Shown: one piece after another, positions 1,464 to 27,146 of the stretch
Layout of the letters: each line of letters starts with the position of its first letter
How positions within the stretch are numbered: the first letter of the stretch is position 1
NCBI GenBank assembly: GCA_905178155.1
Contig: CAJINV010000004.1
Coordinates: 9,270,765 to 9,299,110, forward strand
Origin: Amoebophrya sp. A120
Taxonomy: Eukaryota > Protista > Dinoflagellata
Direction of reading: 5' to 3'
DNA: 28,346 bases
Notes under the pieces: model-generated
Database searches by the model: none
What the model was told of the DNA's origin: nothing
The model's input: only the letters and a program-made list of their open reading frames with translations
Program-made: the position numbers and the translations under genes

Positions 1464-4400
1464 ATGAGCGCGAGCCGCACCTCTACCCAGCCCCAGCCCC
1501 TGGGGATGGGTGACAAGAAGGCCGCCGGCGAGCTTGGGTCGGGCCACGTGCTCTTTTATGCAATGCAAAAGTATCGTACTAGTATAAATTGCATTACAAA
1601 TTCCCCCAGCATTACAAATTGAATTTGTGATGCTGATTTACTTTGAGAAGGAGATTTGTAATGCATAAATGCAATTACTACGAGTACGATACTTTTGCAC
1701 AGGATATCTTTGCGGGGAACACGAAACTCGCCTCCGCGAGCAATATCAAATGTAAAAATGTCTGGATGTCTGGAAGAATGCAACTTGTGATGCTGAATTT
1801 GGATTCCAAAAAAATCTGTATTGCGTGAGCAGCAAAGGGAGTGCAATTTTTGCTGCGCGGAGAGGGCATTTGTCATGCGGAATAGGCATCGCGAGGCCCT
1901 CAAAAAATCTGTGATGTTAGGGCATGCATCACAGACATCATGGCCCAGGCAAAACATGCATGACAAGTCTCAGAATCTTCCAGACCCAGACATTTTTACA
2001 CTTGATAAGCAAGCGGAAGATGCAAATAGCGGACACGGAGGAAAACGCGACGAAGTTAGAGGCGAGTCTGAACAGCCTTGAGTCGATTGAAGAGCAAAAA
2101 GCCACCGCACAGGGCGCTCTGTCCCAGAAAATGCTGCAAGCACTCGCCTCCTCCACCCCAGAATCGGATTTGCAGGTGGACGAGAAGACGCAGCGAGTCT
2201 CTCTGTCGAAAGCAGGCATGCTCGTGGATGCGGGGGAGAACTTCACGAAAAGCCTGTTACCTCCCGCTTGGTGCGAGGAATGGGAGCTGAATTTGCCGGA
2301 TTACCCGAGAATAGACTTCCCGCAGAAAAAGACGGATAAGTGGTCTCTGGACACGCTCCTCGCGATGGTGCAGCACTTCAAAACCAATCCGGCGCAACCC
2401 TTGCATCCATTGCTGATCATGCGATTGCTGAACGACGCGGAGATTGTGATGAGCAAAAAGTACCACCACGCAATACACCGGGCCACGATTCCGAAGAAAT
2501 CCATGGAACAGAAAGCGACGGACGACAACAAGGAGGGGTTGCTCAAAGGAGGTATTTGGGATATTAAGTTCCTGATGTGATTATAATTTTCGATTTAATG
2601 CTGTGGGAAGCATTTTGATTTTTCATCTAGGCTGAATTTGATAAAACAACACAAAATTCTTGACAACTGCATGTGTGTGACACATTTCTTCTTGATTGCA
2701 CCATAAAACTCGACGACAAAAACAGATTTGAGCCAATTCTCGCTCCTGAACAAGAAAGCCGTGGCCACCCCTGGGCGAACCATCGTCGTCGGCGACACCC
2801 ATGGGCAATTAGAAGACGTGCTTTGGATCTTCTACAAAAACGGGCTGCCAAGTCCCAGCAACGCATACCTATTCAACGGCGATATCGCCGACCGTGGATT
2901 CTACGCGACCGAGATTTTCTCCATGGTACTGGGGTTCATGCTGCTGTATCCGAATTGTGTGGACATGAACCGGGGAAACCACGAGGATGAAACGATCAAT
3001 TTAGACCCCCACTGCGGCGGGTTTTATGAGGAAAACATCCAGAAATACGGCGGGAACATTGGATCCACGATCTACGAATCGTACTTAAAGATCTACTCAA
3101 ACCTACCGCTGGCGAGCGTTTTGGAGAAACGGGTTTTTATCGTACATGGAGGTTTATCGCGGGTAACGGAGGGCATGCTGAAAGTGCTGAGTGGCATTGA
3201 CCATCACGTCTCCAGCACCCCCGAATCCCCGGATAACACGGCGGATACGGTGTTTATCGACGCCATGTGGTCAGATCCAATGGAAGGGAAAGGTATAGAG
3301 ACAGTGATTCTACTGTGATTGAATCTGTTTTCAGCTAGTAAAAATTCGACTTGTTCGCATGTGCGTGTGAAAACGATCTGCATCTGTAATTACCTGTCTA
3401 AAGTACTACCTCGTCGATGCGCGAAGTTTAGGAACTTCGTATGATTTAGATTTTCATTTGAAGTACCCATAACCACGCAGGTATCGTACCATCGAATCGG
3501 GGCCCTAGTCTCGTTCAATTCGGCCCGGACGTCACCATGAAGTTTCTGCGGCAAAACGGCTTCCACTTAGTCGTCCGGTCCCACCAGCCACCGTCCAACA
3601 AGGACGGCGTCTTTTTCCACCACGACGGGAGGCTGATAACGGTTTTCTCTGCTAGTAACTACTGCGGCTGGTACGGAAACACAGGTGCGGTTCTGATCTT
3701 CTCCCCAGGGAAGGGAGATACGAAAGCGGCGTCGTTACCGACGATCGAGATTGTCCGTCATTTTTCCCCCACGTTCGATATGCTCGCAAATGCGGAAATC
3801 ACAACGAATGATTTGTTGGCGATGGACCAGATGCAAGCGAGAGCAAAAAACGCAACCAGCATGGAGCACGCCGCGATCAAAAATAGTCGGCAGTCGCTGT
3901 CGCAGAGAATGGACAAGCTCATCTTCGAAGTAAAAACAAGGTTCGCAAGGATTCTAGTGGATAACAAGCAGGGCTTGTGGAAATTCTGGCTCACGCACGA
4001 GAAAGAGGTATGCAGCTTTTTATCACATTTGAGTTGTTTTTTATGCACTTAGCATGCTTGCTGCAAGAAAATCATCAAGAACAAACTATATAGCTCCACT
4101 ACTTCTGTGGACATCGTAGTAAATACGCGACGCATCCTCGCACAAATTTCTTGACTCGATGTCATAGAAGAAAACTACGAACCATACAATTCATCTACGT
4201 TCGAAAAATCAAAAACCAAAACCACAGGGCGACTACAATGATAACCGAAGTAAGAGCGCGCCGCCGGGGCTGATTACCTTTGACGCCTGGAAGGAGGGGA
4301 TTTCGTCTATGGTTGGGACGAACGGATCCGTTTTGGGCGGCATCCCGTGGCAGCAAATCAAGGAGATCCTTTCTATCGAGGACCCCCACACGAAACTCAT

Positions 4401-6244
4401 CGACTACCCACTGTCGCTCCATCGGTTCCGGGTTGTTATTCGGGACGAGATCAAATCCGAGACGCAAATTCAGGACGTGCGGAAATCGGTCACGACGCAA
4501 TCATCCCTTTTCCCCAAGAAAACGGTGGATGCATCCGGGAACGTGATGCGCCACACGAACTGGATGGAGTCCATTCTGGCAAGATTGTTCGAGATATGCA
4601 TTGCAAATATGTGGTCTGCCTCTGGAAGGATGCAACTTGTGATGCTAAATCCGAATCATGCAAAAATCTGTGTTGCATGAGTCCCAAAAGCTGACTCTTT
4701 TCGACCGAGTTCTTGCAAGGGAGTTTCTCATGCAGGATAGGCATTTCAGAGACCTCACAGAGTCTGTCATGCTAGGTTCCGCATCATGGAAAACCTGCAT
4801 CACAAGTTTGCACTCTTCCAGACCCAGACACTTTTGCACCTGATACGAGACACTGTTGCTAGAAAACGTCCCTTGGCAGGACTTAGTCAAGCGGTTCGCG
4901 GCCCCCGGGTCCGCGCCCGCGTCGGCGGAGAGCGACGACGACGACATTCCGGAAATTGACATGGACACGTTGCAGAAAGTGCTTTGTAGCCTGCAGAAAC
5001 CAGGAAGCTCGGGGAGTAAGACAAACGCCCTGATAACCAAGGAACAAGCCGGGTCGCTCATAAGAACACTGACGGGGTACGGGGGAAGCAGGGTAATATT
5101 AAAGTCACTCCTTTGATAACATCACAATGACCTTGAATATCACGACTACGGAATGGAAAACGTCGTGACTTTTCTTTGCCTTCTTTGCCAGCACACAGTC
5201 CAAAAACGAATTCTTTGCGCTTGTTCTACTTCTGGTGTTGTACTTGTTCTACCTAGTGGTCTATATGTTCCTCGCATCAGAAATTCAAATTTACATTGCG
5301 AAAAAAAACCTACACAAAAAAAACTCCTATCACAGCATTCCGTGACCAACCTGAAGCCCTCCTCCATTTCCCTGCTCGAGTTCCTCTCCCGCCTAGAGGT
5401 CTGCTACACCGGGTATAACGTGCAACGCGTCAGGCAGAAGGTCGAGGCCGGGATCAAAGAGGGCCCGGACGCAGAACAGTCCATCATGAATTTAAAGTTC
5501 GGCACCTCCGTCGTGGCAACTTCCCTGCGTTTAATTGGCCAGGAGATCTACGCGGAGTCCGAAGATTCCCGGTCCGCGAGCAAGAGAACGCACAAAATTT
5601 TCCAAGAAGCGGACAAGGACCAGGACGGGTTGTTGAGTAAGGCAGAATTTCTCGACGTGGTGGACCAATTACTGGCCCGGTTTAAAGATTTTTTGCAGGA
5701 ACATTTTCTATCCAGCAAATCCAAATACGCAACCTCCGGGGCGAAGAAGGCGGCAAAGTCGGATTTACCCTTGTCCCTCCTCGAAGATATCTTCAAAGTG
5801 GTCGACGTAACGCGACAGGGGAAAGTTAGCTATCTCGAATTCCTCCACTGCTTCCAGCCCTCCGACCGGTCCGACGACACCGTCGGGCTGTCGAAGCTGG
5901 ACGCGGATTCTTCGATTCCGCACTTGCGGCACCCGGCGGAGGAGATCCGGGTGGCGTTGATGGAGCAGATCTGCGGATTTCTGTACACGAACAAACAGGC
6001 GCTGCACAAAATCTTTCTCTTCTTCGACAAAAATAACTCCCACCTGATCGAGAAAAAGAACTTCGTGAAGGCGGTGAAGTGTCTCAACGTGACCATCAGT
6101 CTGAAAGCGCCACCGTTGACCAACGACCAGATCGAGATGCTCGCGGACCATTGTGTCCTGAACACCGAGGAACAGATAGACTACCTCCAGTTTCTGAACG
6201 CGCTGGTGATCTGTGACATGCGGACCGGGGAGATGTTTGACTAG
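1464..6244 (+). CDS. PPEF: Ser/Thr protein phosphatase with EF-hands (PPEF/RdgC-like), paralog 1, ~1091 aa, 8 exons
   Basis: Manual join 1464-1556,1712-1743,2013-2551,2726-3292,3481-4007,4228-4594,4851-5092,5336-6244 (3276 nt, frame continuous, colinear with paralog 2). PPP motifs: [37 protein letters not shown]. The IFYKNGLPS motif is typical of PPEF. EF-hand-like loops: DKDQDGLLSKAE, DVTRQGKVSYLE. GT-AG introns at 2552-2725, 3293-3480, 4008-4227, 5093-5335, plus three TIR-type introns. Start codon inferred from homology (ELGSGHVLF vs QLGAGQVLF). Junctions within the 5-bp repeats can slide. Confidence 0.88.
1557..1706 (+). mobile_element. Introner/MITE-like non-canonical intron, TIR family B, 150 bp
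   Basis: Left end TATGCAATGCAAAAGTATCGTACT; right end (reverse complement) TATCCTGTGCAAAAGTATCGTACT. Direct repeat TCTTT at 1552-1556 and 1707-1711. Removal gives HVLF|AGNTKLASAS, matching paralog 2 [14 protein letters not shown]. Confidence 0.92.
1744..2007 (+). mobile_element. Introner, TIR family A, 264 bp
   Basis: Ends TATCAAATGTAAAAATGTCTGGATGTCTGGAAGA and rc TATCAAGTGTAAAAATGTCTGGGTCTGGAAGA. Direct repeat AGCAA at 1739-1743 and 2008-2012. Removal gives ASKRKMQI (paralog 2: ASKRKAQI). Confidence 0.93.
4595..4845 (+). mobile_element. Introner, TIR family A (asymmetric ends), 251 bp
   Basis: Left TATGCATTGCAAATATGTGGTCTGCCTCTGGAAG; right rc TATCAGGTGCAAAAGTGTCTGGGTCTGGAAG. Direct repeat CGAGA at 4590-4594 and 4846-4850. 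Removal gives [12 protein letters not shown] (paralog 2: [12 protein letters not shown]). Confidence 0.92.
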
Positions 6245-7908
6245 GGTCGTGACAGGTGGGAAACGGAACTTATTTGTTGCTGTGGAGGTTCTCCTCCCAG
6301 CGCACTTCTAAATTAGTGTCAGACCGCTCGTCGCCTAGTACGACCTAGGGTAGACCTAGTCTTAAGCTTGAGTTTTTACAATTTTTATATACGCAAGTTT
6401 CGCGTGCTCCTGGCAGCACGGGGCTTCTATTGTTTCTGAGTTTTTTTTGTCATAGTCATAGATTACATCACACAAGCCCAAGCAGCCACCTTGCTGGGTA
6501 GGTCATTAGTTCACAATCATCAGCTTTATGCAACCATTGTATTGTTCACCACGTATCGGAAACAAACAGTTACTTTTCCTGCGGTAGGAGGTAGGTACTA
6601 GCCGCGTTTTTTTATAGATGCAACGTATGTATTGGCGACTTTTACAGGTACGTGTAATAGAGGTGGCTAATTACAGAGTTTCAGTACCTGGTTGCTGTTT
6701 GAAAAGCATCATTATGCACATACATTTTTAGACGTAGGCTGTTGATGTGTACTAGCTTTTCCATCACCGAACGTTCTTCACATGATTTTTGGCCCTTGCG
6801 GCGACCCAACGCAACGAAAAATGTTCGGATCTTGATCAAGACTTTTACACGGAGGCGGACCTACAGTCATTTTTCCTGGTGCTTCTTATTTCAGAAAAAT
6901 CGAAAACAGACCTACTGCTGTTGCAAGAGGAATGCCGCTTTTACTTTTTCTCCTCGCCGCACTGATCATGCCTGCGAGAAAGAAGAAACTGAGGAAATTG
7001 CCTATGATTCTTACTGTCGGTAGATCATCAAAAGGACAAAATTCCCTGTGAAGATTATCACTGTCGGTACCGTCTCTTTAAATCTGCATTGCTTTTGCTG
7101 CTCTGGTTGAATATTGTATTTCTTTCTCTAGCTAAACCTCCAACTCCCGTCGGTCTAAGCTCCACCCGCTGGTCATGCCGGCATTCTGTGAAGATCGGTA
7201 TTGCCTGATGCGCACTAAGTGTCGTGAAGGTCGTTTTCTTCCACAAATTTTGGATTTGTTGTGTCATGTTTCCTGCTTGCTGCACTTGGCTTGCTGTAGT
7301 CGGTTTAAATGCTTAAGAACTCGGCAAAGCGCTTCGTCTGTAGGTACTCGTGGCTTTGATATTCGTGCAAGGTTGAATGCTTCTCGCCGTCTTCGTCAAG
7401 ATGAAAAATAGAACGTCAGTATGTTCGTCCACTGCTTGCTCGTCCTACTTTCCATTTTTGTGTATTTGCTTACCTGCTTCAACAATGTGATGCTCTTCGT
7501 CTGCTTCTGTTTATCGACAAGATAGAAGCCATTTTTCATTGTACCTCGAACGACACTAAAACAGGACCTCAATTTGATGAGCCCCATCAAAACTAGATTG
7601 CTCAACTGAGATTTACTTCATCCAAGAAAACATTTTTACCTGAATTAGAACTCCCCCCCAAAAATTGTGGTCTTCATTAGTCCAGAACAGAATCTTCATG
7701 CCCGAGGTGTGGTCAGCTGGCAGCTAGCACCTGTTGGCGTGGAGCGTGCCTGTAGAAGGTTGTGCAAAAGTTGTGCTCGTCGCTCCTCCGGGGGCGGTCA
7801 GTCGGAGTGAACTTGAATTTCCATAAATTCGCGCACAATAAGAAACTAAGCCAGAACCATAATTCCTACGAACCAGTGTAGAACAAGAGACCACAAATAT
7901 CTCAAAAG

Positions 7909-10900
7909 ATGAGCACGGCCAAACCGCTTCTTACCCGCGCGAACAGCGGTTCCGGGCAAACGCTCGCCCGCGGCAAATCCAGCGGGCTTTCCGCCCCCAA
8001 GGGGCTGGATATGGAGCAGCTCGGGGCCGGCCAGGTACTGTTTCAGGGGAACAGCAAGCTCCAGTCGGCTTCCAAGAGGAAAGCGCAGATTCACGACACC
8101 GAGGAAAACGCCACGAAGTTGGAGCAGTCGCTGAACTCCTTAGAGTCCATTGAGGAGCAGAAGGCCACCGCACAGGGAGCCCTGTCCGCGAAGATGCTAC
8201 AGGCGCTGGCGTCTTCCACCGCGGACAATGATCTCCATTTGGATTCCCAAACCGCAAGGGTTTCCCTCACAAAATCCGGAACCGTGCCCGGTGGTAGCGG
8301 GGAGAACTTCTCCAAATCGCTACTCCCAGCCGCTTGGTGCGAGGAGTGGGAGTCAAATCTGCCCGATTACCCCAGAATAGACTTCCCCCAGAAAAAATCC
8401 GACAAGTGGACCATCGACACGATGCTGGCGATGGTGAAACACTTCCAGACGAACGCGGCGCAACCCTTGCACCCTTTGCTCATCATGCGATTATTGCACG
8501 ACGTGGAGATCGTGATGAGCAAAAAGTACCACCACGCCATTCACCGGGCGACCATTCCGAAGAAGTCCATGGAGCAGAAAGCAGCGGAGGAGAACAAAGA
8601 TAATTTGTTGAAGGGCGATTTAACGCAGTTTTCCTTATTGAACAAAAAAGCGGTCTCCACCCCGGGGAGAACCATCGTCGTCGGCGACACGCACGGGCAG
8701 TTGGAGGATGTGTTGTGGATTTTCTACAAGAACGGGCTACCAAGTCCGAGCAATGCGTATTTATTCAACGGGGACATCGCGGACCGCGGATTTTACGCCA
8801 CCGAGATTTTCGCGATGGTGTTCGGCTTCATGATTATGTACCCGAATTCGGTGGACATGAACCGCGGGAATCACGTATCCTGAGTAAAAACGTCCCCATC
8901 CCAGAGTTGTCATGCAGATTTGCGATTACAGGAAGATTTGTAATGCGCATCTCCTTGAGATGCATTTCTAATCGTGTTTTGGCATTTGTAATGCTGTAAA
9001 CAGGATTAGGGAACGGCTTTCTCATGCGGCTTTACTTGCTAGCCAGCCCTACACTGCATATGGAAGCTTGTCATGCAGAACTCCCCAAGCTGGGGGATTT
9101 GTGTTGCAGACTTTCCATCTGCACTATGGTGTGGGGAGGTTTTTACAGAGGATATCACGAGGACGAAACGATCAACTTAGACCCGCATTGTGGCGGGTTT
9201 TATGAGGAAAACATCCAGAAGTACGGGGGGAATATCGGCTCCACAATTTATGAGTCCTATCTAAAGGTGTACTCAAACTTACCGTTGGCGTCCGTGTTGG
9301 AGAAGCGAGTTTTCATCGTGCACGGTGGCTTATCGAGGGTAACGGACGGAATGCTGAAGGTGCTCAGCGGCATCGACCACCACGTGTCTTCCATCCCCGA
9401 ATCACCAGATAACACGGCGGACACGGTGTTTATCGACGCCATGTGGTCAGACCCAATGGAGGGGAAAGGTATGTGTTACTTTTTTTTTTTATGATGAAGA
9501 AGACTCTGACACTGACTCTGCTACTGCTTGGATTAGAAATTTTCTACGAAATAACTCGATGAACCTGTTGGAGGCAGGTGAACTCGATCTACTGTCGCAA
9601 GCAGTGATCTAGTAGGGCGCTATCTTTCATCAACATCTGTATGAGATTTATCTTGCATGAAGACGACCTTGTCCTTGACTTCACCTCGATCACACGACAG
9701 GTATTGTGCCCTCGAATCGCGGCCCCAGTCTCGTCCAATTCGGCCCGGATGTCACCATGAAATTCCTTCGCCAAAACGGCTTCCACTTAGTCGTCCGGTC
9801 CCACCAGCCTCCGCCCAACAAGGACGGCGTGTTTTTCCACCACGACGGGAGGCTGATAACGGTTTTCTCGGCTAGTAACTACTGCGGCTGGTACGGCAAC
9901 ACCGGCGCGGTTTTGATCTTCTCACCAGGAAAGGGGGATACCAAAGCGAGCAGTCTCCCGACTATTGAGATAGTCCGGCATTTCTCGCCGACCTTCGATA
10001 TGCTGCAAAACGCGGAAATCACGACCAACGACTTGCTCGCGATGGACCAGGTAGCCAACCGCGCGAAGAACGCAACCAATATGGAACACGCGGCCATCAA
10101 AAACAGCAGGCAAGATCTGACCCAAAGGATGGACAAGTTGATCTTCGAAGTGAAAACGAGGTTTGCGCGAATTCTAGTGGACAACAAACAGGCTTTATGG
10201 AAATTCTGGCTCGCGCACGAGAAGGACGTACTGAATTGTTTTTTCGTTTAGAAGACGATTATGATGTGAATCCTGAGAGATTAGTAGATCCATAGCAAAG
10301 AAAAAAGCACTACAGGCGTTGATGCAGTGCTGTGTTTTAGCTTTGGAAGGTGGATAAGCATAAGTATGGTGGTAGACGCAGACGTAGTGTAGCTTCTACG
10401 ATAAGATCTACTTTATCTGGCTCATATTGCCCATTAGCAATAGAAATTTAGCAAAAGTTTCCATTTCAATTCTTCACAACAGGGCGACTACCTCACCCCG
10501 GCCACGAAGAACACTCCGCCTGGATTGATTACTTTCGACGCCTGGAAAGAGGGTATTTCCAGTATGGTGGGGTCCTGCGGCTCGGTGCTGCAGGGCATCC
10601 CGTGGTCCCAGATCAAAGACATTTTGAATATCGAGGACCCGCACACGAAGCTGATCGACTACCCTTTGTCCCTCCACCGGTTCCGAGTGGTGATTCGGGA
10701 TGAAATTCAGGCGGAATCCGCCCTGCAGGACGTGCGGAAATCTTTAGCCATGCAGTCGACCTTGTTCCCGAAGAAAACCGTAGACGGGTCCGGCAACGTG
10801 ATGCGACACACCAACTGGATGGAAAGCATTCTTGCGCGGTTGTTTGAATCTTTGCTCCTGGAAAACGTCCCCTGGCAGGATCTAGTGCAGAAATTCGCGC

Positions 10901-12750
10901 CCCCGGGCAGTTTATCAACTGTAAAAATGTCTGGGTCTGGAAGAACGCGCGATCTGTCATGCTGCTTTTCCATGACCCATGAGGTCTGGAATGCAGGACC
11001 TAGCATGACAGATTCTGCGAGACCTTTCGAATGCCTATCCTGCATGAGAAACTCCCTCCCGACTTGGTTAAAACTGGACGACTTTTGGTAATCATGCAAC
11101 ACAGATTTTTGCGTGCTGCAGATTTAGCATGACAAGTTGCAATCTTGATCTTCCAGACCCAGACATTTTTACATTTGATACAGTTCCGCGGCGTCAGGAG
11201 ACTCCAATTTACCCGAGGTGGACATGGGAACGCTGCAGAAGGTGTTGCAAAGTTTGAGCCAGAAGGGGGCGTCCAGGGGCTCTCGGACCAACGCCTTGGT
11301 TACCAAGGAACAGGCCGCGTCGCTTGTCAGAACGCTCACGGGGTACGGCGGAAGCAGGGTATAATTTTGGTGACTTGATGGACTTACTTTTGCGAAAAAA
11401 TGTATGACTGTGATGTATGTTTGATGCGATGGAGTTAGAGATGGAGTTCAGTCACTGTCGCTCTACGTCTGTTGTTGAAACAGAAAAGATAAAGATACAA
11501 AAAAACTACCTTGCAAAAACTATTATTCTAGAACAAATTTTTCATCCTCCTACAACAACCCTCACAGCACTCGGTGACGAACTTGAAGCCCTCCTCCGTT
11601 TCCCTGCTCGAGTTTCTTTCCCGCTTAGAGGTTTGCTACACCGGGTATAACGTGCAACGCGTCCGCCAAAAGGTGGAATCCGGCATCAAGGAGGGTCCGG
11701 ACGCGGAGCAAACCATTATGAATCTGAAGTTTGGCACGTCCATGGTGGCCACCTGTTTGCGGCTGATCGGCCGCGAGATTTACGCCGAGTCCGAAGACAG
11801 CATCTCCGCGTCGAAGAACACTTTTCAAATTTTCAAGGACGGGGACGTGGATAAAGACGGGCTGCTCTCCCGCGCGGAATTTCTGGAAGTCGTGGACCAG
11901 CTGCTGATGACCTACAAAGATTTTCTCAAAGACTACTTCCTGTCCGGAAAATCCAAGTACAACGTGTCCAGCACCGGCGGGCCGGTGAAGCGCGGGGCTA
12001 AATCCGATTTGCCCGTGGCCTTGCTGGAGGACATTTTCAAGGTGGTAGACGTGACCCGGCAGGGCAAAATCTCCTACCTCGAGTTCCTCCACTGTTTCCA
12101 GCCGTCCGACCGCACGGACGACGTCGTGGGGTTAAGGGACAAAAACAAGGAGAAGCAGAGGACGCTGAAACACCTCAAGCACCCCGCGGAGGAGATCCGG
12201 GTGGCGCTGATGGAGCAGATCTGCGGAGTATTATATTCGAACAAGCAGGCGCTGCACAAAACCTTCCTCTTCTTCGACAAAAACAACAGTCGCAGCGTCT
12301 CGAAAGCGACGTTTTGCAAGGCGGTCAAGTGCTTGAACGTGAGCATCAGTCTGAAGTCGCCACCCTTGACGAACGATCAGATCGAGATGCTCGCCGACCA
12401 CTGCGTGCTCAACAGCGACGACGAAATTGACTACCTGGCGTTCTTATCAAATGTAAAAGTGTCTGGGTCTGGAAGAGTGGAACTTGTGATGCGCATTTCA
12501 GAACATACAAAAATCTCTGATGCATAGGCAGCAAAAGCTGCCCACTTTCTGTCACCAAAATGGCGGATTTGTCATGCGGATTCGGCATTGCGGAAGCTTC
12601 TCGAAACCTGTGACGCTAGAGCTTCCATGCCAGACCTTCTGTGTCATGCAGAAACAGCATGACTCTTCCAGACCCAGACACTTTTACATTTGATAGTTCT
12701 TAAACGCGCTCGTGGTGTGTGACATGTACACCGGTGAGATGTTCGACTGA
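7909..12750 (+). CDS. PPEF: Ser/Thr protein phosphatase with EF-hands (PPEF/RdgC-like), paralog 2, ~1110 aa, 7 exons
   Basis: Join 7909-8875,9160-9468,9701-10227,10483-10912,11186-11358,11568-12444,12701-12750 (3333 nt). Same PPP motifs and EF-hand region as paralog 1, ending [14 protein letters not shown] introns 9469-9700, 10228-10482 and 11359-11567 sit at the same positions as in paralog 1. Three TIR-type introns sit at different positions. Confidence 0.9.
8876..9154. mobile_element. Introner, TIR family C, 279 bp, inside the RGNHE catalytic motif
   Basis: Left TATCCTGAGTAAAAACGTCCCCA; right rc TATCCTCTGTAAAAACCTCCCCA. Direct repeat TCACG at 8871-8875 and 9155-9159. Removal restores [12 protein letters not shown], identical to paralog 1. 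Confidence 0.92.
10913..11180 (-). mobile_element. Introner, TIR family A, 268 bp, reverse orientation
   Basis: Ends TATCAACTGTAAAAATGTCTGGGTCTGGAAGA and rc TATCAAATGTAAAAATGTCTGGGTCTGGAAGA. Direct repeat CAGTT at 10908-10912 and 11181-11185. The interior resembles the reverse complement of 4595-4845. Removal gives [18 protein letters not shown]. Confidence 0.93.
12445..12695 (+). mobile_element. Introner, TIR family A, 251 bp, perfect 34-bp TIR
   Basis: TATCAAATGTAAAAGTGTCTGGGTCTGGAAGAGT occurs inverted at both ends. Direct repeat GTTCT at 12440-12444 and 12696-12700. Removal gives [22 protein letters not shown]. Confidence 0.95.
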
Positions 12751-14222
12751 TCCAGAAGTAGGATGGTGTTGTAGTAGGAAGTTGTGTAGTGCGGGACCGG
12801 GCTGCACTGCATATCTTCATTATCATTTCACGATCTAGCTCTCGTTTCATTATTTTTTTTTCCAATACGACTATTTAGCTCTATTTTGCGCAACTGCATT
12901 TATTTCAATGGATATTACAACTCAAAAGTCGGGCGATGAACAAAGGCGACCCGTTTATTTCAAATTTCTTATTTTCATCGTTTTTCATACGTTAGTTTTT
13001 CTGTTTCTCTCTTTGTTTTCATAACATAACCGTCAACATTCAAGTACGTTAGAAATGTGTTTCATTCAAATAGACATTGTATCATCGGTTTTTTTTACTT
13101 TTCTCATTTTTTAGCAAGACACACTCGTCACATTGACACTCATATTAATTTCGCACTCCCAAAAATAAAGGTAAAAGAGCTTGTTCTTCAGGCGTAATAT
13201 TACATTTCCCTATTCAACGAACCGCCACCTGGTTCTCATTTCCCTAACAGATAGAAAATCCCAATCACAAAAGAACCTCTCCACATCTGTACCCCAGATC
13301 TGCGGAGGATTTTCTTTCCCCCGCATGAGAACTTTTCCTGCTGTCGAACGCACGGTTCATCAAGCAACTTCCCCTTTGTGCTAGTTCACGTCGTATTTTT
13401 ACCTACAACTAAAATTCCCCGTCAACGCGGTAGCGTTGTTTCCTCGCTTAGCGTGGAGCACGGAGCTGGGGCCCGCTGCGTCCTCAGCTTATTGTGTTCA
13501 TCATGTCGTCGCGCCCACGAGGAGTCTTCTTGTCTTCAAATAGCGCACCGACTAGGGCGCGACCAGGTATTAAAGAAAAAACAAAAAGACAGTAGACTTC
13601 GGAAGAATGAGCAAGGTGTAGATGAAATTGAGATCAGAATCACAAATAATGATCGAAGATCCACCTCTCTCGCACGACCTCGTGAAGATGGAAATGACAT
13701 GCAAAAAATTCCATGATCTGAAATGCATGAGGTAGATCCAAAAACTACACCGACGCGCGTGGTCGTTGCCTTCCGGCTCGCTTTGTCTCTCAATATTTTG
13801 CGCGTCAAATTTTCTGTTTCACAGATGACCCACTTCGTGGTCTTTGTCATCAGTTATACCTTCACGACGACCTTTTGTTACAGTACTTTCGAGTTGTAGT
13901 TTTGATTTATTAAGGGACGCATTTCTTGTATCTATGATCGTGATTTTTTGGAAATCCTAATCCAATCTAGCCCTAAGTAGAACATTACGAGGTTCTAACA
14001 GTTCCTGCACCTACTGTATACACAACTTAGTGAGTTGTGCGACGTTATCTTCTTCTTCTGTGACTGTTTTTAATATATTCTAGTATTCGATTTAAATAGA
14101 CCAAGACCATTCGTTCGATCTCAAGGTCGTTTTGAGCGGAAGCAAAAAATCGTTGTCCATCTTGAACTATTGCTCACCGGACTTGTCGTGTGTTGGTCGT
14201 ACTGCCCGACAGGAGCACCATA

Positions 14223-17200
14223 ATGTCGACAAAAGCCAAGATTTTTACCCGGACGAGGTCCTTCGATCTCAACACGACCTTGGGGACGAGGAAAAAACCA
14301 CTTTCGGTCCTGCTAATGCCCGCCCTGAAGATGTGGGCACTTCTTTCCTGCCTGGTCGGGACGATGGGACCATCTTCGACGTCATTTATGAATTTTTGCG
14401 TAGTTGCAGCACCATACACATACACGACTTCCTCGTCTCAATTTGTTCAGGGAGGTCCAGCCTCCATCACAATCCTGAATGCTCTGAGCGGAAACAAAAT
14501 CACACACCTTTGCGAATTCGAGTTGAGAAGTTGGCTCCTGCAGGGGAAAACGGTTGGGGACTTGCGGGAGCTCGTTTTGCAATCCGACAAGGAGCGCTGG
14601 GGAAGTAGGAGAAGTCGCGTGTCGCTGGTCGTCGACAACAAAAGGAATGAAGAACGTTACCAGCAGCCCGATGTTGCTTCCTCGTCACATATGACATTTC
14701 TCACCGACGATCGTCTTAAACTTGAGGACCTGGGGCTTTGGCTACAGGCCCACCTTGACACGGAACTGGAACGAGTACAACGGCAAGGGGGGGCTGGTCC
14801 ACGAGCTCGTACGGCTGCGCCGATCACGCCCGCCCTAGTGGCTCCTTACTTTCCACCGCGGCCCTCGTCATCCACGATCTTCCGGTCACCAATGCCCACC
14901 TTGTCGTCCATGAGAATGCAAGAACCCTCGAGCTGCTCAGCAGGAAGTCTTTTTTATCAAGAAGAACCTTCCAGCTGGGCCCCCTCAGCTGCACAGCAGC
15001 ACATTGTGATTCTCGCTGGCTACCAAAAGGGCTCGGTCCCACTGCTTCTGCCCTCCAGGACGATCCCTGGTGGTGGTATGTCCAGCAGAACAAGGGCAAG
15101 TTCCTACGTGGAGGAAGTGCAAACCGGTTGGCGGGTCTTCACCCGGCCACAGTTCCTGGTGCTGAAGCTGGTCGGCGCGTACGCGAACTTGCGGGTCGGG
15201 GTGGAGAACCTGTGGAAGACGAAGGACCACGCGGCCGACCTCTCGTTCGCCCTGGCGCTTGTGCAGAAAGCGGCGGAGCTTGGGGTAGTAGATGTGTCAA
15301 GAACAGGAGCATCTAGGCCATTTAATATCTCGAGGATCCCCACTTCGTCGAGTACAACAGCGGAGGAAAAAATATCACCGTTGAAGGCCGACATGATCAA
15401 GTGCAATGGGGAGCGAAGACGCTGGCGTGAGGAAGTGAGGCGGAAGCTGCAAGGGTTTCTTTCGTACGTTGAACGAGAGTCTGCTCATCTCGAGAGCCAT
15501 CGTTCTGCTTCGCCCGCGCGGCCCCAAACAACGTATGATAATGATTGTGATGTCCGCGGTACTTCTACAGGCCCCCACTTGGCGGGAAGCGAAAGTGCAA
15601 GTGGCGAACATCAAGCGCGTTCTGCCTTAGACGTCGACCACGGAAGTAGCACTACCCGGCGCTCAAGAAGAAGACAGAGAAACAGAAAGCAAAACGCACC
15701 TAAAAATGGTACTGAAGCTGCACTGGAGATGAATAAACGAGACGAAGAGCTGGCTCAGTTGCACGCTCAGGTGCGGCAAGCCCTGAGCAGGGCTGCCAAG
15801 AAGAGTATGCTTTTCAAGGACGAAGAGTACCATCGCCAGTTCCGCGGTTGTACTAACGAAAGTGTTAAAAATGTTTCGCGTTTGTGGCAGGAGTTCACCA
15901 AGCTGATAAACGACTTGCGGGTGCAAAGTGGTAAAAATTGGATCGGCGTGGACCCGCAGACGGAACGGCCGGCGGAAAGCGGATCTGAGGACCGGTCAAC
16001 AGTTTTGCAGCCCTACTACGAGGGACTGCTCAATGGCGAAATGAAAGAGCAAACTACGCTTTTGGACCAAATAAAGACAGAGTTTACGGACGCAAGTTAT
16101 GCGACGTTTGTTGATGAACTTTTGCACGGCACGGAAAAAGACCTGGAATATTTTTACCACGGTCGTGAGCAGTCGTCTTCTTTTTACAGCAAGAACTCCG
16201 CGTTGTCCGCACGAGTAGTAGAAAATGAGGATCTACAGCACGAGCGGGCGAGGAGATCTTCTTCAGACCTTTCTCATGACGGAGATGAAAGCTCCTGCCG
16301 AGGGGCGGCCATAAAGATGATCCCTCCGACCGCCGCGTCGAGTAGTACTAGTACAGCAGCTCTGGTGGGACGACGGACAATACCTACTGCTTCAGGTTCC
16401 CCTCCAGGTCGTGGGTTTTTTTTTACGAAAGAAGCGGTGATTCGCGACGGGTTGCGATTTCTCCTGAAATCTGCCGCCGCGACGAAGAAAATGCGCAGCA
16501 AGCTGAAAAAGTTGTGTGACGAACTCTTTCTCCGGGTAATCCGTCCGACCGTCAGGCGGTGGCTGCCGGGCTTGGAATTGGAGACGCTGCCGCAGGACCT
16601 GAAGCCCATCCCAGACCTCCTGGACCGCCCCCGGAAGTTGTATGCGCGAAGCGGAAACGTACCCAACCTACAACGTCTTCCGTGGCAACTTCAGGAAGCA
16701 CTTCTTGCAGGTGGTCCTGCTCAACCCTTGACGGACGAGCAGCGGCTGCAGCTGCTGCGTGGGATGTTGACGGTGGACCCGCCGCTGAAATATGCCGCAA
16801 ATCACCCGGTGGCAGAGGCCTGGGCTCGCGAGGGCAAAGACGTCAAAGAGTTTTTCGAGATGGATCTCTCCGATAATTTCGAACTGGTCGACCTGAAAGC
16901 GGATTATCAGAGGGACTATTTCTGGGTCATAACAGCTAGATACGGAAAAAATGGTGAAAATATTATTGGCACACCATCAAACGGACGACAATCAAAAGCT
17001 TCTGGCCCGGATGGGCGAGATGAACGAGAAATACGTCATTCGAAGATATTTGAGTTCGAGTACCGATATAAAGCGGGCGTGGGCACGGAGGCAAAATTAG
17101 ATATGTTGAATATCAAACCATATGACAGAAGCAATAGGGCGCTCAGACTCGAAGAGCTTCGGGTCAAGAAGCTCCTTCTGGTGCGGATTATGCGGAACAA

Positions 17201-17684
17201 CTCTAGCAGCAGCGCCACCGTCTTCACAGATGTATCGACAGTAAATTTCCCGTACACGTACAAATGCCGTCTCCGCATGACAAAACTTGGCTTCGATCCT
17301 AGTTTAGCATGACAAGTTTTACGCTCCAAATTGGTGAAATTTGTGTTGCATCTTGTACATGTACGGGAAATTTGTATTGCATAAGATGAAGCAGAAGAGT
17401 ACGAGGAATATGAGCCTGCTGCTCTTTGGACCTGGTCCCGAAGTTTTTCTTTAGGAAACGAGCTGGAGCTGCGGCAAAGCAGCAACGAGCTGCCGGGAGG
17501 GATCACGTTCAAAAAGCTTAAACTCGTAGCCACGGCGGACGTCACCGACGAACCGGGGAAGGTCTCCCCAATGCCCCACAAGGTCATCGACCCGGAGCTT
17601 TACGCGACAGCAGACGACGCGGCTGAGGCGGCGGAAAAAGCCTTAGCGTCAGGCCTCCTGCTGCCGCAATCGCTCCTTTATTAA
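14223..17684 (+). CDS. Hypothetical protein, ~1100 aa, 2 exons; possible N-terminal hydrophobic segment and ubiquitin-like domain
   Basis: 3-kb open frame (ORF 14190-17312; first ATG 14223, alternative ATG 14316). Removing the TIR element 17233-17383 plus one repeat extends the frame (VFTDEAEEYEEYEPAALWTW...LPQSLLY*) to TAA at 17682-17684. Join 14223-17232,17389-17684. No family recognised. Confidence 0.7.
17233..17383. mobile_element. Introner, TIR family D, 151 bp
   Basis: Left TATCGACAGTAAATTTCCCGTACACGTACAA; right rc TATGCAATACAAATTTCCCGTACATGTACAA. Direct repeat AGATG at 17228-17232 and 17384-17388. Contains the stop codon that truncates the ORF (17310-17312). Confidence 0.88.
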
Positions 17685-19527: not shown

Positions 19528-22500
19528 ATGTTGCAGAAGAAGACTAACAGCACCGCATTCCTGTCGCTGAAGAGCAATGCTACGGCTACCTCCACCGACC
19601 CAGAACGTCGCGGCACGACGACCGTGCCAAGCAGTGTTAGCTCCGGCCTGTCCTCGGTCGGCTCGCGGTTTTCCATAGCCAGCAACAAGACCGAAGGAGG
19701 ACATCAAGCGGGCTCTTCTGGGCGAACGTCTTCTGATACAACGGCTGGCGCAGCTGTTGTAGGTGTACAACAGCATCACCATCATCATAGGGACAAGTCC
19801 AATGCTGCCTTGCAGAAGCAGCTTGAGCACTGCCTGCAAATCTTCGAGTCGGTGGAGGAGCAGAAAGCGACGACCCAGTCCGCGCTGAGCGCCAAAATGC
19901 TGCACGCTTTGATGCTCTCGGAGGAGCAGCACGAGCGCGAACGGCGGGCGGGAAAGCACCCGGCATTCGGGTCTCTGCAGAGTAAGGAGCCGGTAGTGCC
20001 ACCACCTGGAGGAGGTGCAGCTCCATCTTCCGGAAGAAGCTCGCCGAGGGGGGGAGTTGTAGTACCTACTACTGGAGTTGTTGTGGGCGCCGGTGGAGAT
20101 CAGAGCGCGGCAACCGCGACAAGTAGCGACCCCGACTTGCCGACAGGTCGTGGTCCCAGACCGAGACCGTCTGCCGCCGAAAACGCAGCGGGATTCGCTT
20201 CCTTTTCTCCGCAGCTCGTCACGGTCCCGGGTTCTCTCGACCCGCACACAGCAGACGAAGACCAACAGCACCGCAACAAGAACAAGGGGGACGAAATTAC
20301 AGGTAGTAAAACATCTTCAGCTACAGGAAGTAGAAATATTACCAGTAGTCCCTCCGCAACTACTACCTCCTCCTCCTATCAGAAGCCTTTAGTATCTGTA
20401 TCCCCACAAGCTGTAAGTAGTAAATCCTCGCCTGCCACCTCGGGCACGACAACCAGCAGTCCCCGGCCCAGCAAAGGAGCCATGACAGCTGCCCGGAGTG
20501 GGTCGTTCCAACAGCAGCGAAGCAAGAAGCAAAGCCTGCGCCATGCGACGTCCTGGTACAACCAGTCACTGTTGCTGAAAAAGGACCACTTTGTCAAGCA
20601 GTGGGAGGAAACTTTTCCGGACTGCCCGAAAATCACCCATCCGCAGCAACAGCCCGGCATGGGTGAGCATTGGTCATTTGTGACGGTCCGGGAGTTGATC
20701 AACCACTTCCAGAAACTCCCGGAGCAACCCTTGCACCCGTATTTTGTCATGCGGCTGCTGTCCGACGCGGAAAGGCTGATGACGAAGAAGCACAACAACG
20801 CGGTCTTCCAGCTCACAGACAAAAGTTTATACTTCTCAGGAAGCGGTACAACTAGAGGTAGTGAAAAGAAAAAGTCAGGGAATAAAGTGGAAACAACAGC
20901 AGGAGCTGCTGCAACTTCTGCAGCAGTTGCACTTGCAGCGGAAGTAAATACTAAAGACATAAAGCAAGAACCTTCCAAGTCCTCCGCCCCGACTTCGCGC
21001 CTGATCATCGTCGGCGACACGCACGGGCAATTGGAGGATGTGTTGTGGATTTTCTACAAAAATGGGCTTCCCTCGGCGGAAAATCAGTACCTTTTTAACG
21101 GGGACATCGCCGACCGCGGGTTTTACTCAATCGAGATTTTTCTGTTGGTGTTTTCGTTGATGCTCATCTTCCCCAACCACGTGCACATCAACCGGGGCAA
21201 CCACGAGGACGCGAACATGAACATGGACCCGCACAGCGGGGGCTTCTACGGGGAGTTGATCGCGAAATACGGGACGCAGCTCGGGCAGTCGATCTACCAC
21301 CAAATGCTACGGAACTACGCGGTGATGCCGCTGGCGACGTTGTTGAAAGAGTCGAAAATTTTCATCGTCCACGGGGGTTTGTCGCGGGTGACGGATAATT
21401 TCCTACAGACCCTCTTAACCTTGGACCGGCAAACCCGGTGCTGCTACGCGATCCCGGATACGCCGAGTCACAGCAATCCGGAAACTTGCTTTTTAGATGC
21501 GATGTGGGCGGACCCGGCGCCGGACGAGGGGGACCGGTCCATCGGAATCTCGCCGTCGAGTCGGGGGCCGCAGCTGATTCAGTTTGGAAAGGATGTGACG
21601 AAAAAGTTTTTGAAGCAATCCGACTGCAAACTCGTGATCCGTTCGCACCAACTGCCCGACAACAACGATGGTGTGCAATTTCACCACGATAGGAGGCTGA
21701 TCACCGTCTTTTCGGCTTCGAATTATTGTGGGATCCACGGGAACCAGGGCGCCATCTTGGTTCTGACCAGGCACGAGGAAGGGGGCCCGCATTTGGAAGT
21801 CGAGCGGCATTTTTCTCCGAGTTTTGAGCAATTGAAAGAGGTGGATTTCTTCGCCAGTTATGGAGAAACATATGGAAATGCCATGGGAGCAGGAGCCGCA
21901 GCTAGTGCTCGTGATTCAAAAAGAGCAGGAATTACGAAAAGCTTGGTTCCGCAGGGGACCATTGGACGAATTGCGGTGGAGGACCGAGGAGCAGGAAGGG
22001 CGGACACATCTGAAGAACTACAGGTAGTTGACGAGGAGGAGGGGGACCAAAATAAAAATACCAAAAAATCTCCTGCTGCGGCATCGGCTTCTGCTCCGGA
22101 AAAATTGCTATCCTCTTCCCCGCGCACCTCCGCTCTGGAAATGGAAAAGAAGGCGATGGCCAAACTGCGTAGCGGCGCTCTAGGTCGCCTCCGGAAGAAA
22201 AAGCTCACCTACGAGGTGAAAACCCGGTTTTCCAGGATCCTGGTGGAAAACAAGCAAGCGCTCTGGAAATACTGGCTCGCGATCGAGCATCAAGGGCAGC
22301 AACAGCAGCAGCAGCATGGAGGACCACGACGAACTTCCACCAGTGACTTGTCTGACCGTTCGAGTGACAGTATCCGGAACTCAAGTAGGCCCAGAAAATC
22401 TAACACACCCGACGGAATGATCACGCAGCAGAGTTGGTCCGACGGAATCGTCTCGATCGCCGGTGCGCCGGATATGAAGGAGCTGCCCTGGGGAAAGCTG

Positions 22501-25500
22501 GTCTCGGAAGTGCTGGGGATCGAGGACGAGCATTCGCATCTGATCGACTACTATTTCACGTTGCACAGATTCCGGGTGGTAATTAAAGAGGAACTAGAAG
22601 CGGAGCACGGCAGACGGATCCAGGGTCGGAACAACAGGGGGAATAAAAGAAGTGTGGTCTTTGCAGAAGGAGAGGCTGGCGCAGCAACATCTTCAGAGCA
22701 GTACAAGAAGATGTTGAACACAAAATCTTCGAAGTCCTTCGACCCTCGCGGCACCATAGAGCTCATGGAGGTTGATAGTCTTATTTCTGGGTCTGATCCG
22801 GTGGGTCCTGCTGCTGGTGACAGCACGCAGCTATTAACGAATCGTCGAGCAATCATAGCTCAATCCACGACCTCCACAGGCGGAACTACACCAGCGCGCC
22901 AGCTTCCCGCTGCTGAAGGCGAACTTCCAGCTCTATCTCGGGGCGTTTCGGAAGATGATACGGCAACCAACATAGAAATAATTCCTCCCAAGATGAACGT
23001 TCTCGACCCTACTGGCGCGGCGGGCGGGAACGTCGACCTGCGATCCAGGTTAAACGCTTTCGACACCATCCAGGACAAACGTGTTATGGCAACGAATGTC
23101 ACGTTAAAGAAGAGATCTACCGAGGACTTGGAGCGCAGCCGCAGGCTTAGCAGCGACGCGACAGCTATAATTTCCGGCACGGCTGCAGCGGTCGTGCTGA
23201 AGGACGTCGATAGTATTATTCAAAATGCCACAGACCACGCTCCTCCCGAGAACAACGATAATGAAACCAACTACAACATCGGGGCGCTTTCTCTAGAAGC
23301 TCTGGAAGAGAAAGCTGGAGCTGCAGTACTAGGTCGCAAAACTGTGCCACAGAACCCCGCGCACGACGAGGCACAAAAGAGACCGGTCTTTCAGCAAACC
23401 TCGTCCAATTGGATGGAGGGGATTCTGGCGAACATTTTTGAGAAGCTGTTGCGGACGGAGGTCCCCTGGATGGACTTGGTAGAACGGATGAACATCAAAA
23501 AAGAATCCAGCAATGCGTCTGCTGTTGGTGCTGGAAATAAAATTAAAGCGGAAGTGAACAATAAGACCGAAGATGGAAGCAGCGCAAAAAATAACCCCGA
23601 CGTTGAACAGCAAAACGAAAGCGAGACCCAAGCCGATAGACGCACCAAATTTGCCGAGCTGATGGAAGAGCCATTGGATGTGAAGGTTTTTGAAAAGATT
23701 CTGATGTCTTTTAACGACCTTTTCGCGGACTACAGTGAAGACAATTCGACTTCCACTACTTCTAGGAGGTCCAGATCGAGCGAATATCAACTGCAAAAGT
23801 GTCCTCTGGGTCTGGAAGATTGCCAGGTTTGTCATGCAGGTTTTCTATGGCTCATAACGTTTAGAATGCAGGAGCACCTAGCATGACAAAGTCTGTGAGA
23901 CCTCTATCATGTCCGTCCTTCATGAGAAATTCCCCCTCAGCTTGGTAAAAAAGGACGGCTGTTGGTAATCACGCAACACAGATTTTCTGCATGATGCAGA
24001 TTTAGGTTTAGCATTACAAGTTGTGACCTTCCAGACCTAGACATATTTGCATTTCATAGCGAGACGCTGCTGACGAAAGACCAGGCGGCGAGTTTGATCC
24101 GCACGTTGACAGGCTACGGGTCTTACAATGCAGCTCCGAGTAAAGTAGAGCAACAGCAAGAACAAGATGGCACTGGTACAACTAAAACTACGGCTCCTAA
24201 TAAAACCTCCGGCAATATCAAGAAGGGTAGTACCAAAGGAAAAGGCAAGCAACTACTGTCTCTCGCCGAATTCCTTTCCCGGTTGGACATTTGTTACATA
24301 TCCTGTGCAAAAGTATCGTACGCGTATAAATGCAAGTCTTGCATTACAAATATTTTTCTTTGAGGTAAATCAGCATGACAAATTTTATTTCTCATGCTGA
24401 GGAAATTTGTAATGCATTTATACGACTACGATACTTTTGCAATGCATATTACACGGGGTACAGCAATCGTGTGCGACAGAACCAAAGACTTAGGGAGCAA
24501 TCGGACGAGGGGAATACTATCAATGTCAACAATGTCAACGCGGCATTAATCCGGGCCAGTAGCAACGAGAGCAGCGAGGAGAGTGAGTCGACACCCGATA
24601 ATGTTTTTGCGAAGAAAAAGACCAGCACGACCGAGCGGACGTCGACCCAGTCCACACAATCTGTTGACCGCTTTGATTTCAACAAGTACGGCAGTACGAC
24701 GGTCGCGATCTGTTTGCGGATGATTGGCCGAGATATCGGGAATAAGACGTTTGAACTCTTCAAGAACGCGGACAAGGATCAATCCGGAATGCTGACCGAG
24801 AAGGAGTTTTTCGCGGTCACAGAACAGTTGTTACTCCCGCACGCGGAGTATCTGCAACAGTACTTTTTGTCGGATAAAAAATTTAACTCGTCCACCTCGC
24901 CGGGCAACAAGAACACCTTCGCCCCGATGCCGCGCACAACTACTTCAGATGGAACAACAGCAGGTATTGGTACAACCAATGCCGCAAATAAGATTCCGGA
25001 TTCCCTTCTCCGGGAAATTTTCAAGACGGTCGATTTTAACAAAACGGGAAAAATCAGCTATTTGGAGTTTCTCCATTGCTTCCAAGACCCAGACGGCGAC
25101 TTCGGGTTTGAAAAGGTGACAAACGAGAATGTTGACAGCAGTGTTACTAACACAGCCAATGTCAAGCACGACGAGTTCCGCATCGCCTTGATGGAGCAGA
25201 TTTGCGGGGTGCTCTACACGAACAAACAGGCGCTACTCCGTATGGATGTGTCAGGATCGAAATCGTCAAAGTTGAAATAGTTTGCCATGCATAATAAAAC
25301 CGATACCAGTCAGAAGCCCACGTATCAAGCGGCGCATGACAAATTTTGGCACCGTCTAAATCCAATTTGTCATGCTGTTTAGGGACAGAGGGCGTCCTTT
25401 GTCATGTTGCTTTAGCAGCTGTGTCGCAGACTCCAAACAGGCTGACAGTCGGCCTCACTTGCCATCCCTGCAAGAGAAGCACTTCATGCCTTGGAGTTTA

Positions 25501-26118
25501 TGCATGAGAAATCATTTCAACTTTGTTGATTTCAAACCTGACGCCTCCATACTCCGGGTGTTCCAATTTTTCGACGACAACCACGACCACCGGATTACGT
25601 ATTGAGAGGAAAAATCCCCCCTCCCCATATTGAAAAGGTATGTCTCCGGAAATTTGTGTTGCTGATTTGAGGTCACAAATCACATCTGTCTTGCAAGAAG
25701 ACAAGGGCAAAAGCTTCCGCCATATTATCGAGGCGATTTGTCATGCCGTTGGGCCTAAAGGGAGGCCGTTTGCCATGCTGAGCAACTAGACCCATACGCC
25801 CCCAGCTAGCCGGCGGATCTGGCCGCTATGCCTTTCTGCAACGCAAATCTGATTTGTGTACCCAAATCCAGCATCAGAAATTTCGTTTTGATATGGGGAG
25901 GGGGGATTTTTCCTTTTGATATTACGCAGATGGAGTTTGTGAAAGCCTTGAAGTGTCTAAACATCGCGATCAACCTCCGGGATCCGCCGTTGACGAAGCA
26001 ACAGATCCAAATGATGGCAGACCACTGCGTTTTGGATAAGGACGGGAGAATCGACTACGTGCTGTTTCTGAACGCATTGTGCATCTGCGACATGCAAACC
26101 GGAGAGATTTTTGATTAA
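19528..26118 (+). CDS. PPEF: Ser/Thr protein phosphatase with EF-hands (PPEF/RdgC-like), divergent expanded paralog 3, ~1837 aa, 5 exons
   Basis: Join 19528-23784,24064-24298,24454-25240,25557-25599,25927-26118 (5514 nt). Motifs [40 protein letters not shown]-like loops DKDQSGMLTEKE, DFNKTGKISYLE, DDNHDHRITQME. Ends CDMQTGEIFD*. Long S/T/A/G-rich insertions. Start codon is uncertain, and in-frame stopless introns cannot be excluded. Confidence 0.85.
23785..24058 (-). mobile_element. Introner, TIR family A, 274 bp, reverse orientation
   Basis: Left TATCAACTGCAAAAGTGTCCTCTGGGTCTGGAAG; right rc TATGAAATGCAAATATGTCTAGGTCTGGAAG. Flanks are GCGAA (23780-23784) and GCGAG (24059-24063). Interior is similar to 10913-11180. 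Removal gives SSETLLTKDQAASLIRTLTGYG. Confidence 0.9.
24299..24448 (-). mobile_element. Introner, TIR family B, 150 bp, reverse orientation relative to 1557-1706
   Basis: Left TATCCTGTGCAAAAGTATCGTA; right rc TATGCATTGCAAAAGTATCGTA. Direct repeat TTACA at 24294-24298 and 24449-24453. Removal gives LDICYTGY (paralogs: LEVCYTGY). Confidence 0.93.
25241..25551. mobile_element. Introner, TIR family E, 311 bp
   Basis: Left TATGGATGTGTCAGGATCGAAATCGTCAAAGTTGAAAT; right rc TATGGAGGCGTCAGGTTTGAAATCAACAAAGTTGAAAT. Direct repeat CTCCG at 25236-25240 and 25552-25556. Removal gives KQALLRVFQFFD. Confidence 0.9.
25600..25921. mobile_element. Introner, TIR family F, 322 bp
   Basis: Left TATTGAGAGGAAAAATCCCCCCTCCCCATAT; right rc TATCAAAAGGAAAAATCCCCCCTCCCCATAT. 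Direct repeat TTACG at 25595-25599 and 25922-25926. Removal gives HRITQMEFVKALKCLN. Confidence 0.92.
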
Positions 26119-27057: not shown

Positions 27058-27146
27058 ATACATACATACATACATACATACATACATACATACATACATA
27101 CATACATACATACATACATACATACATACATACATACATACATACA
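27058..27146. repeat. (ATAC)n microsatellite, ~22 units
   Basis: Perfect ATAC tandem run. Confidence 0.97.

Follow-up and report, generated by a model that had tools for sequence, protein, structure and literature searches.

We analysed a window of 28,346 nucleotides (nt), the whole stretch taken from contig CAJINV010000004.1 of the dinoflagellate Amoebophrya sp. A120, in which four genes, all on the forward strand, are interrupted by 11 short elements with the anatomy of introners (transposon-like elements that act as introns). When each element was deleted together with one copy of its flanking direct repeat, and seven canonical GTA…CAG introns were also removed, all four genes became open, with 1091, 1110, 1101 and 1837 codons; an earlier, sequence-only reading of this DNA had claimed such a restoration of frame. 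Gene A (1464-6244) encodes a Ser/Thr phosphatase with EF-hands (1091 residues; Pfam Metallophos and EF-hand) and holds three introners and four GT-AG introns. Its paralog, gene B (7909-12750; 1110 residues, 82.8% identical), holds three introners and three GT-AG introns, gene C (14223-17684; 1101 residues from the first ATG) a single introner, at 17233, and gene D (19528-26118; 1837 residues), a longer paralogous phosphatase with EF-hands according to Pfam, four introners and no GT-AG intron.

The elements begin with TAT and end with ATA in every case, as had been noted from the sequence, and the 11 start positions and 11 gap lengths given at that time are all correct. Two families are represented more than once (all coordinates on the forward strand). 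The first consists of the elements at 1557-1706 (150 bp, repeat TCTTT) and 24299-24448 (150 bp, repeat TTACA), which are 83.6% identical and lie in opposite orientations. The second, of 250-275 bp, has five members: 1744-2007 (264 bp, repeat AGCAA), 4595-4845 (251 bp, CGAGA) and 12445-12695 (251 bp, GTTCT) share one orientation, while 10913-11180 (268 bp, CAGTT) and 23785-24058 (274 bp, GCGAA on the left and GCGAG on the right) are reversed. The remaining elements are at 8876-9154 (279 bp, TCACG), within the conserved RGNHED stretch of the phosphatase domain, 17233-17383 (151 bp, AGATG), 25241-25551 (311 bp, CTCCG) and 25600-25921 (322 bp, TTACG). The sequence-only reading had placed all of them between 5-bp direct repeats; this is exact for 10 of the 11, while the two copies at 23785 match at four of five bases, a difference that is synonymous (both Glu in frame). 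Its terminal inverted repeats (TIRs) exist but are imperfect: the element at 12445 has a perfect 34-bp repeat, that at 4595 has 13 matches in the first 25 positions without gaps, and that at 23785 can be aligned only with a gap. A scan of the window for TAT…ATA with 5-bp repeats and 13 or more matches in 25 arm positions gave 10 occurrences, compared with a mean of 0.045 and a maximum of 1 in 200 resamples of the window that kept its dinucleotides. The 11 elements counted earlier are all real, but a twelfth end of the 250-275 bp family had been overlooked: it is unpaired, measures ~88 nt (26392-26478) and lies downstream of gene D, outside the gene models.

Several observations support a precise removal of the elements. 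Retention of a single element produces a premature stop in 10 of 11 cases; in the case of 12445 the final residues are frameshifted and the stop moves from codon 1111 to codon 1122, so that the expected frameshift or stop is seen throughout. Spliced gene A is identical, letter for letter, to the A120 protein P0005 (GSA120T00022602001), and spliced gene D to P0002 (GSA120T00022607001); a search with the phosphatase domain of gene D returned an 1837-residue Amoebophrya sp. A120 protein at 100%. A third protein, P0128 (GSA120T00022606001), corresponds to residues 757-1101 of spliced gene C, spans the junction and is absent from the unspliced translation. P0005, P0002 and P0128 are neighbouring A120 gene models, and the deposited, transcript-guided models omit 8 of the 11 elements exactly (those of genes A and D and the one at the end of gene C). 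The three removals in gene B are supported by colinearity with gene A, with P0003 and with the A25 protein P0004. At conserved insertion sites, the paralogs and A25 have no extra residues.

Removal might nevertheless be imprecise, through cryptic GT-AG sites, or the genes might be pseudogenes, or the elements might be lost from the DNA of expressing cells. Some frame-keeping GT/GC-AG pair does occur within ~30 nt at 9 of the 11 elements, but each of these alternatives alters residues, at 8876 inside the RGNHED stretch, and there is no such pair at 25241 and 25600. The sequence-only reading had named use of nearby cryptic sites as an outcome that would tell against it. The frames are otherwise intact over 1091-1837 codons, the deposited proteins reflect exact removal at 8 of 11 elements, and Farhat et al. 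(2021; PMC7789003) report 66,565 A120 introns with support from RNA sequencing (RNA-seq), over 60% of A120 introns being non-canonical. We rejected cryptic GT-AG use and pseudogene status because the pairs are absent or residue-changing, the frames intact and the deposited proteins matching, and we regard imprecise removal in any form as very improbable.

The phenomenon itself is already known, and the elements are in print and annotated in A120. Those in the window are almost certainly the published A120 introners, on the evidence of the A120 proteins encoded here and of element ends that agree with the published motif; the link to described Amoebophrya introners drawn from the sequence is thus one of identity. 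In the available text of PMC7789003, the inverted repeats of A120 consist of TAT, seven variable bases and at least three A, and direct repeats of 3-5 nt lie over the exon-intron border (5 bp in the legend of Fig. S19). Here, TAT followed by seven bases and AAA (positions 11-13) is found at each end in 10 of the 11 elements, the exception being 25241, which has no A-run at these positions. Host, TAT-motif inverted repeats, a direct repeat within the published range, non-GT-AG borders and repeated families are all shared, as are a length of ~240 nt in the published set and a share of ~17% of the A120 genome, to be compared with 17.5% of the TIR-anchored loci described below. Farhat et al. count 29,850 repeated introns in A120, with gene models built from transcripts since canonical tools failed; they find nearly all spliceosomal proteins and U2, U4, U5 and U6, do not find the U1 small nuclear RNA or a transposase, and leave the splicing mechanism open. 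We see no difference in kind between their elements and ours; their available text does not give one 5-bp rule for all families, a splice register, a lack of orientation bias, a bias between the two ends or families in a second assembly. No publication was found that fixes the splice register of A120 introners; Figs 3 and S19-S25 of Farhat et al. and 17 further rows of Gozashti et al. (2025; PMC12130899) may bear on it. The available portions of PMC9860276, PMC13149111 and bioRxiv 2025.08.15.670264 yielded no information on A120.

We compared the window with a second, environmental assembly, a single metagenome assembly in which the end motif matched at least 142 stretches; 141 partly overlapping loci (L001-L141; 405,882 nt) were examined, and no match to the end motif fell in a viral contig. 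Near-full-length relatives exist for all 11 window elements, with a best identity of 81-95% (94.7% for 1744) and 6-126 near-full-length hits per element, hits that are not copy numbers because the loci overlap. When pairs of inverted TAT…ATA repeats were collected with no filter on the direct repeat, a set that includes inner and mismatched pairs, 209 of 309 had an exact 5-bp repeat and 4 a 4-bp repeat. In the 79 longer loci, each selected because it contains an element, 17.5% of the sequence consists of elements. The available text of PMC7789003 calls introners strain-specific; these relatives suggest that the families may persist in a wild relative and hence not be strain-specific. The unpaired end at 26392 matches element ends of L136 and L068 at 79.5% identity across 88 nt; it has no near-full-length match, and downstream of it we found neither a partner end nor a transposase-like open reading frame (ORF) among 11 nearby ORFs.

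The elements show the features of miniature inverted-repeat transposable elements (MITEs): TIRs, a target-site duplication (TSD) of constant length and variable sequence, small size, no coding capacity and many copies. Orientation is unbiased in every family (47:37, 14:13, 12:5 and 6:10), and the composition of the 5-bp repeat is that of the coding background (phase-matched test, p 0.14-0.84), with no sequence preference beyond it. An origin from DNA transposons is therefore highly probable, and both the mobile-element origin and the precise removal proposed in the sequence-only reading are supported by the restored frames, the deposited proteins and the relatives in the second assembly. An internal motif of the TGTnATGC type, defined from the window's own elements, occurs in all 193 elements whose strand could be assigned, across at least nine families, with a density of 14.7 per kb in elements and 0.86 outside. 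Their behaviour is that of MITEs belonging to an integrase-like DDE clan. They would spread by means of a transposase supplied in trans: one integrase-like DDE enzyme may read the shared TAT ends together with the internal motif and make a 5-bp staggered cut, which would yield the 5-bp duplication.

Published families offer several points of comparison for this transposition. In the available part of PMC12130899, most families in 41 of 58 A120 rows are classed as TIR DNA elements of 105-330 bp, similar in TIRs and length to the window elements, and family 38 is described by "5-bp TSD, TA/TA Termini", as here, but is 808 bp long with integrase-like homology, as against 150-322 bp of non-coding DNA. 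Among the groups with integrase-like DDE enzymes described in the available text of PMC10045372, IS3EU/GingerRoot elements have the same TA..TA termini but a 6-bp TSD, IS481EU elements have TNT..AYA termini and duplications of ~4, 15 or 25 bp instead of 5 bp, and Ginger2, with a TSD of 4-5 bp, is compatible. Our TSDs measured 5 bp in 250 of 356 cases and 6 bp in none (the pairing favoured 5 bp, and the unbiased set of 309 likewise contains none of 6 bp), and membership in IS3EU was rejected because the TSD is 5 bp, not 6. No transposase family was matched among the 80 longest locus ORFs (of 285 with at least 170 residues), and a search with the 731-residue ORF of L052 returned only itself.

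Some elements in the second assembly, their ends intact, carry inserted non-coding DNA and are much longer (457-1148 bp): L060:3001-3972, L040:3095-3725, L057:1928-2431, L039:571-1051, L020:3314-3770 and L070:4553-5700. None of the six contains an ORF over 149 residues, and the 972-bp element of L060 comes after an exon of RNA polymerase Rpb1. Insertions across L001-L141 also have a codon-phase bias of ~2:1:1: repeat base 1 occupies the third position of a codon in 92 of 193 elements (p 1e-4), in 100 of 202 in a set detected without reference to the terminal triplets, and in 6 of 11 in the window. The bias, which under the splice register proposed below corresponds to an excess of phase 0, is not explained by a preference for any single base.

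How are such elements removed from transcripts? No deletion register equivalent to the observed one gives GT-AG or GC-AG at any of the 11 window elements, as had been claimed from the sequence, and an ordinary U2 intron, with a GT/GC donor and an AG acceptor, was rejected on that ground (0 of 11). A clue comes from the element ends in the second assembly. Terminal triplets are intact in 239 of 253 elements, and strands were called by a coding model trained on the window genes, which oriented 193 of 294 elements and left 101 to be dropped. Among the 193, variants at positions 1, 2 and 3 of the 5' triplet number 0, 1 and 7, while those of the 3' triplet, starting at the last base and moving inward, number 7, 1 and 1 (Fisher p 0.0014). 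Triplet-blind detection restricted to perfect repeats gave 0, 1 and 5 at the 5' end versus 4-5, 1-2 and 1 at the 3' end (p 0.015-0.048). A constraint on the DNA, or base pairing, would act equally on the two ends, so this strand bias likely means that something on the transcript reads TA at the 5' end and AT at the 3' end.

The canonical introns of the window provide a reference. Gene A has four, at 2552-2725 (missing in gene B) and at 3293-3480, 4008-4227 and 5093-5335 (positions common to gene B), and gene B has three, at 9469-9700, 10228-10482 and 11359-11567; all are on the forward strand and all seven donors read GTA. An ab initio GT-AG intron finder was discarded (0 of 13 calls exact), while a finder constrained to GTA and YAG made 5 exact calls out of 6, recovered 5 of the 7 true introns and predicted 26 introns in the second assembly. 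Canonical acceptors, for example that of 4008-4227, are preceded by an A/C-rich rather than a polypyrimidine tract, and the same holds for the 26 predicted introns. From the host donors and the conserved 5' TA of the elements we infer a donor N|TA that begins at base 5 of the left repeat, which places the acceptor at base 4 of the right repeat and the conserved AT at -7/-6. The U at +2 is the most rigid base of a donor, and under this proposed register it shows no variant in 193 elements. In some protists the distance from branch to acceptor is fixed.

Taken as a whole, trans-mobilised introners that are excised from pre-mRNA by a relaxed host spliceosome seem to us a slightly better than even explanation of these sequences, and we give the narrower proposal, a relaxed spliceosome acting at the N|TA register, an even chance of being right. 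The intron would open one base inside the left repeat and close four bases into the right repeat, so that the mRNA would retain exactly one repeat. At the donor, the first T and A of the element would replace +2 and +3 of the host GTA, with +1 free; the acceptor would need no AG and would be placed by a constant spacing from the AT conserved close to the element's 3' end; the A of this AT may be the branch adenosine. The hairpin would bring the intron ends together. Either orientation would work, since each element end reads TAT when taken on its own strand. NT donors are listed in Table S4 of PMC7789003 and agree with N|TA.

The sequence-only reading had suggested that splicing is guided by structure, and in part this stands: all 11 elements are predicted to fold into hairpins that join their ends, with similar energy on both strands. 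Such folds are also what one would expect if, on the same transposon origin, a non-spliceosomal nuclease and ligase cut near the base of the hairpin, as has been proposed for the nonconventional introns of euglenids. The unbiased orientation, the background composition of the repeat, an outer 30 nt with a substitution rate of 0.033-0.037 versus 0.068 in the interior (about half), and the U1 small nuclear RNA not found in A120 (PMC7789003, available text) fit this proposal too. The stems, however, have no excess of G·U pairs (116 G·U vs 133 A·C; 69:62 at the ends vs 284:252 inside), in the first and third terminal pairs one base is better conserved than its partner, which pairing by itself does not predict, and the conserved 5' TA resembles the canonical donor of the host. 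We consider the nuclease-ligase proposal unlikely and rank the relaxed spliceosome at N|TA ahead of it.

Euglenid introns, as described in the available text of the review PMC11282704, have an end-joining TIR hairpin of the kind predicted here, TSD-like repeats and no polypyrimidine tract, but they follow a pyrimidine|purine junction consensus with a CAG/CTG stem, where the present elements have TAT…ATA ends whose conservation is strand-biased; a junction of the euglenid type was rejected, the repeat positions matching the coding background at the p values given above. The same review describes introns of Fritillaria borealis that are likewise derived from MITEs with TIR and TSD and are removed by an adapted U2 spliceosome. 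In that species AG-AC and AG-AT predominate after an exonic TAC, whereas the elements studied here have an unselected repeat and no fixed dinucleotide at either end. The introners of Micromonas and Aureococcus (PMC11282704 and PMC7789003, available text) are also non-autonomous TIR elements that become introns and make use of the TSD, but they carry or co-opt GT/GC and AG, a register that is available here in 12 of 161 elements with perfect repeats. Another Amoebophrya has mostly GT-AG introns and U1 (PMC12005148, available text).

Direct repeats whose two copies differ bear on where the cut falls. In an SNF2 gene of the second assembly (L012; best blocks 65% identical to A25 and 72% to P0123, with no A120 protein returned by the search), the Phe of P0123 and P0124 survives only with a cut after base 3, 4 or 5 of the repeat. 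This was the one case with usable homologues; of 67 flanking ORFs, 1 matched Pfam and was uninformative on polarity. Where repeats are mismatched at base 5, the left copy has G and the right copy C in 3 of 5, giving a GT donor. A dedicated protein, such as a domesticated transposase or an RNA-binding factor, might instead recognise the internal motif and mark the ends for the spliceosome or some other ligase, the cut possibly sliding along the 5-bp repeat. That a single motif of the 8-mer type is present in all 193 oriented elements would suit this idea, as would splice sites that vary relative to the hairpin according to a figure legend in PMC7789003 and a synonymous share of 53% among the repeat mismatches, above expectation for a wholly free copy. 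The motif, however, is found on both strands and could equally well be a DNA binding site of the transposase, the SNF2 case rules out cuts before repeat base 3 for its element, and no candidate protein of this kind was identified. We hold a dedicated protein to be quite improbable.

A number of points weigh against the relaxed spliceosome as we have drawn it. The end bias was recognised post hoc, comes from 12-17 variant elements and depends on strands called by a model. An intron with a free +1 and a free 3' dinucleotide departs widely from the usual chemistry of the spliceosome: only 67 of 193 elements have G at +1, and the scarcity of a GT/GC-AG register has been noted. Mismatched repeats show no clear polarity (17 synonymous, 15 not). 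The candidate branch position is weak in canonical introns: five of the seven in the window have A at -7, but only 13 of the 26 predicted ones of the second assembly do, within an A-rich tract; a consensus AY at -7/-6 is weak in the 26 predicted introns, and we do not claim it. The NT donors of Table S4 were possibly chosen by the aligner, as the annotated pairs look strand-symmetric, and we do not count them as support. For the three elements of gene B, the proposed removal is backed by colinearity. Finally, no transposase was recognised in the 80 long locus ORFs, nor in A120 according to the available text of Farhat et al.

Other features of the window are as follows. The three paralogous EF-hand Ser/Thr phosphatases form one co-oriented cluster (1464-26118). 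Genes A and B share three canonical intron positions and no introner position, and gene D has introners only. Gene C is open for 1101 codons from an upstream ATG, while its deposited model comprises the last 345; no Pfam family was found in its first 1003 residues, and no relatives besides identical pieces. The left edge (1-383) is a GC-rich tandem array with periods of 19, 38 and 57, and towards the right edge (27058-27147, 27980-28085 and 28297-28346) there are microsatellites of ATAC and CATACAGA and clustered palindromic repeats of the TCACGTGA type. Rfam gave no match in the window.

The contribution of this analysis is a testable hint on the splicing of a known system. The mismatched repeats, that at 23785 included, are natural markers with which the register can be tested precisely and cheaply. 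For environmental assemblies, the elements (~17% of the loci examined) mean that gene finders that assume GT-AG introns will break the genes of this parasite clade. More tentatively, and with somewhat less confidence than in the register itself, we suggest that the spliceosome of the A120 clade may have dropped both terminal dinucleotide rules, reading only U at +2 and A at +3 of the donor and measuring a fixed seven bases from the branch adenosine with no need of AG. If the register holds, a spliceosome freed of the GT and AG rules would turn arbitrary transposon insertions into scarless introns. If the wider suggestion is also true, any TAT…ATA transposon that makes a 5-bp duplication would be a perfect intron wherever and in whichever orientation it landed, the spliceosome's ruler being matched to the transposase's 5-bp stagger.

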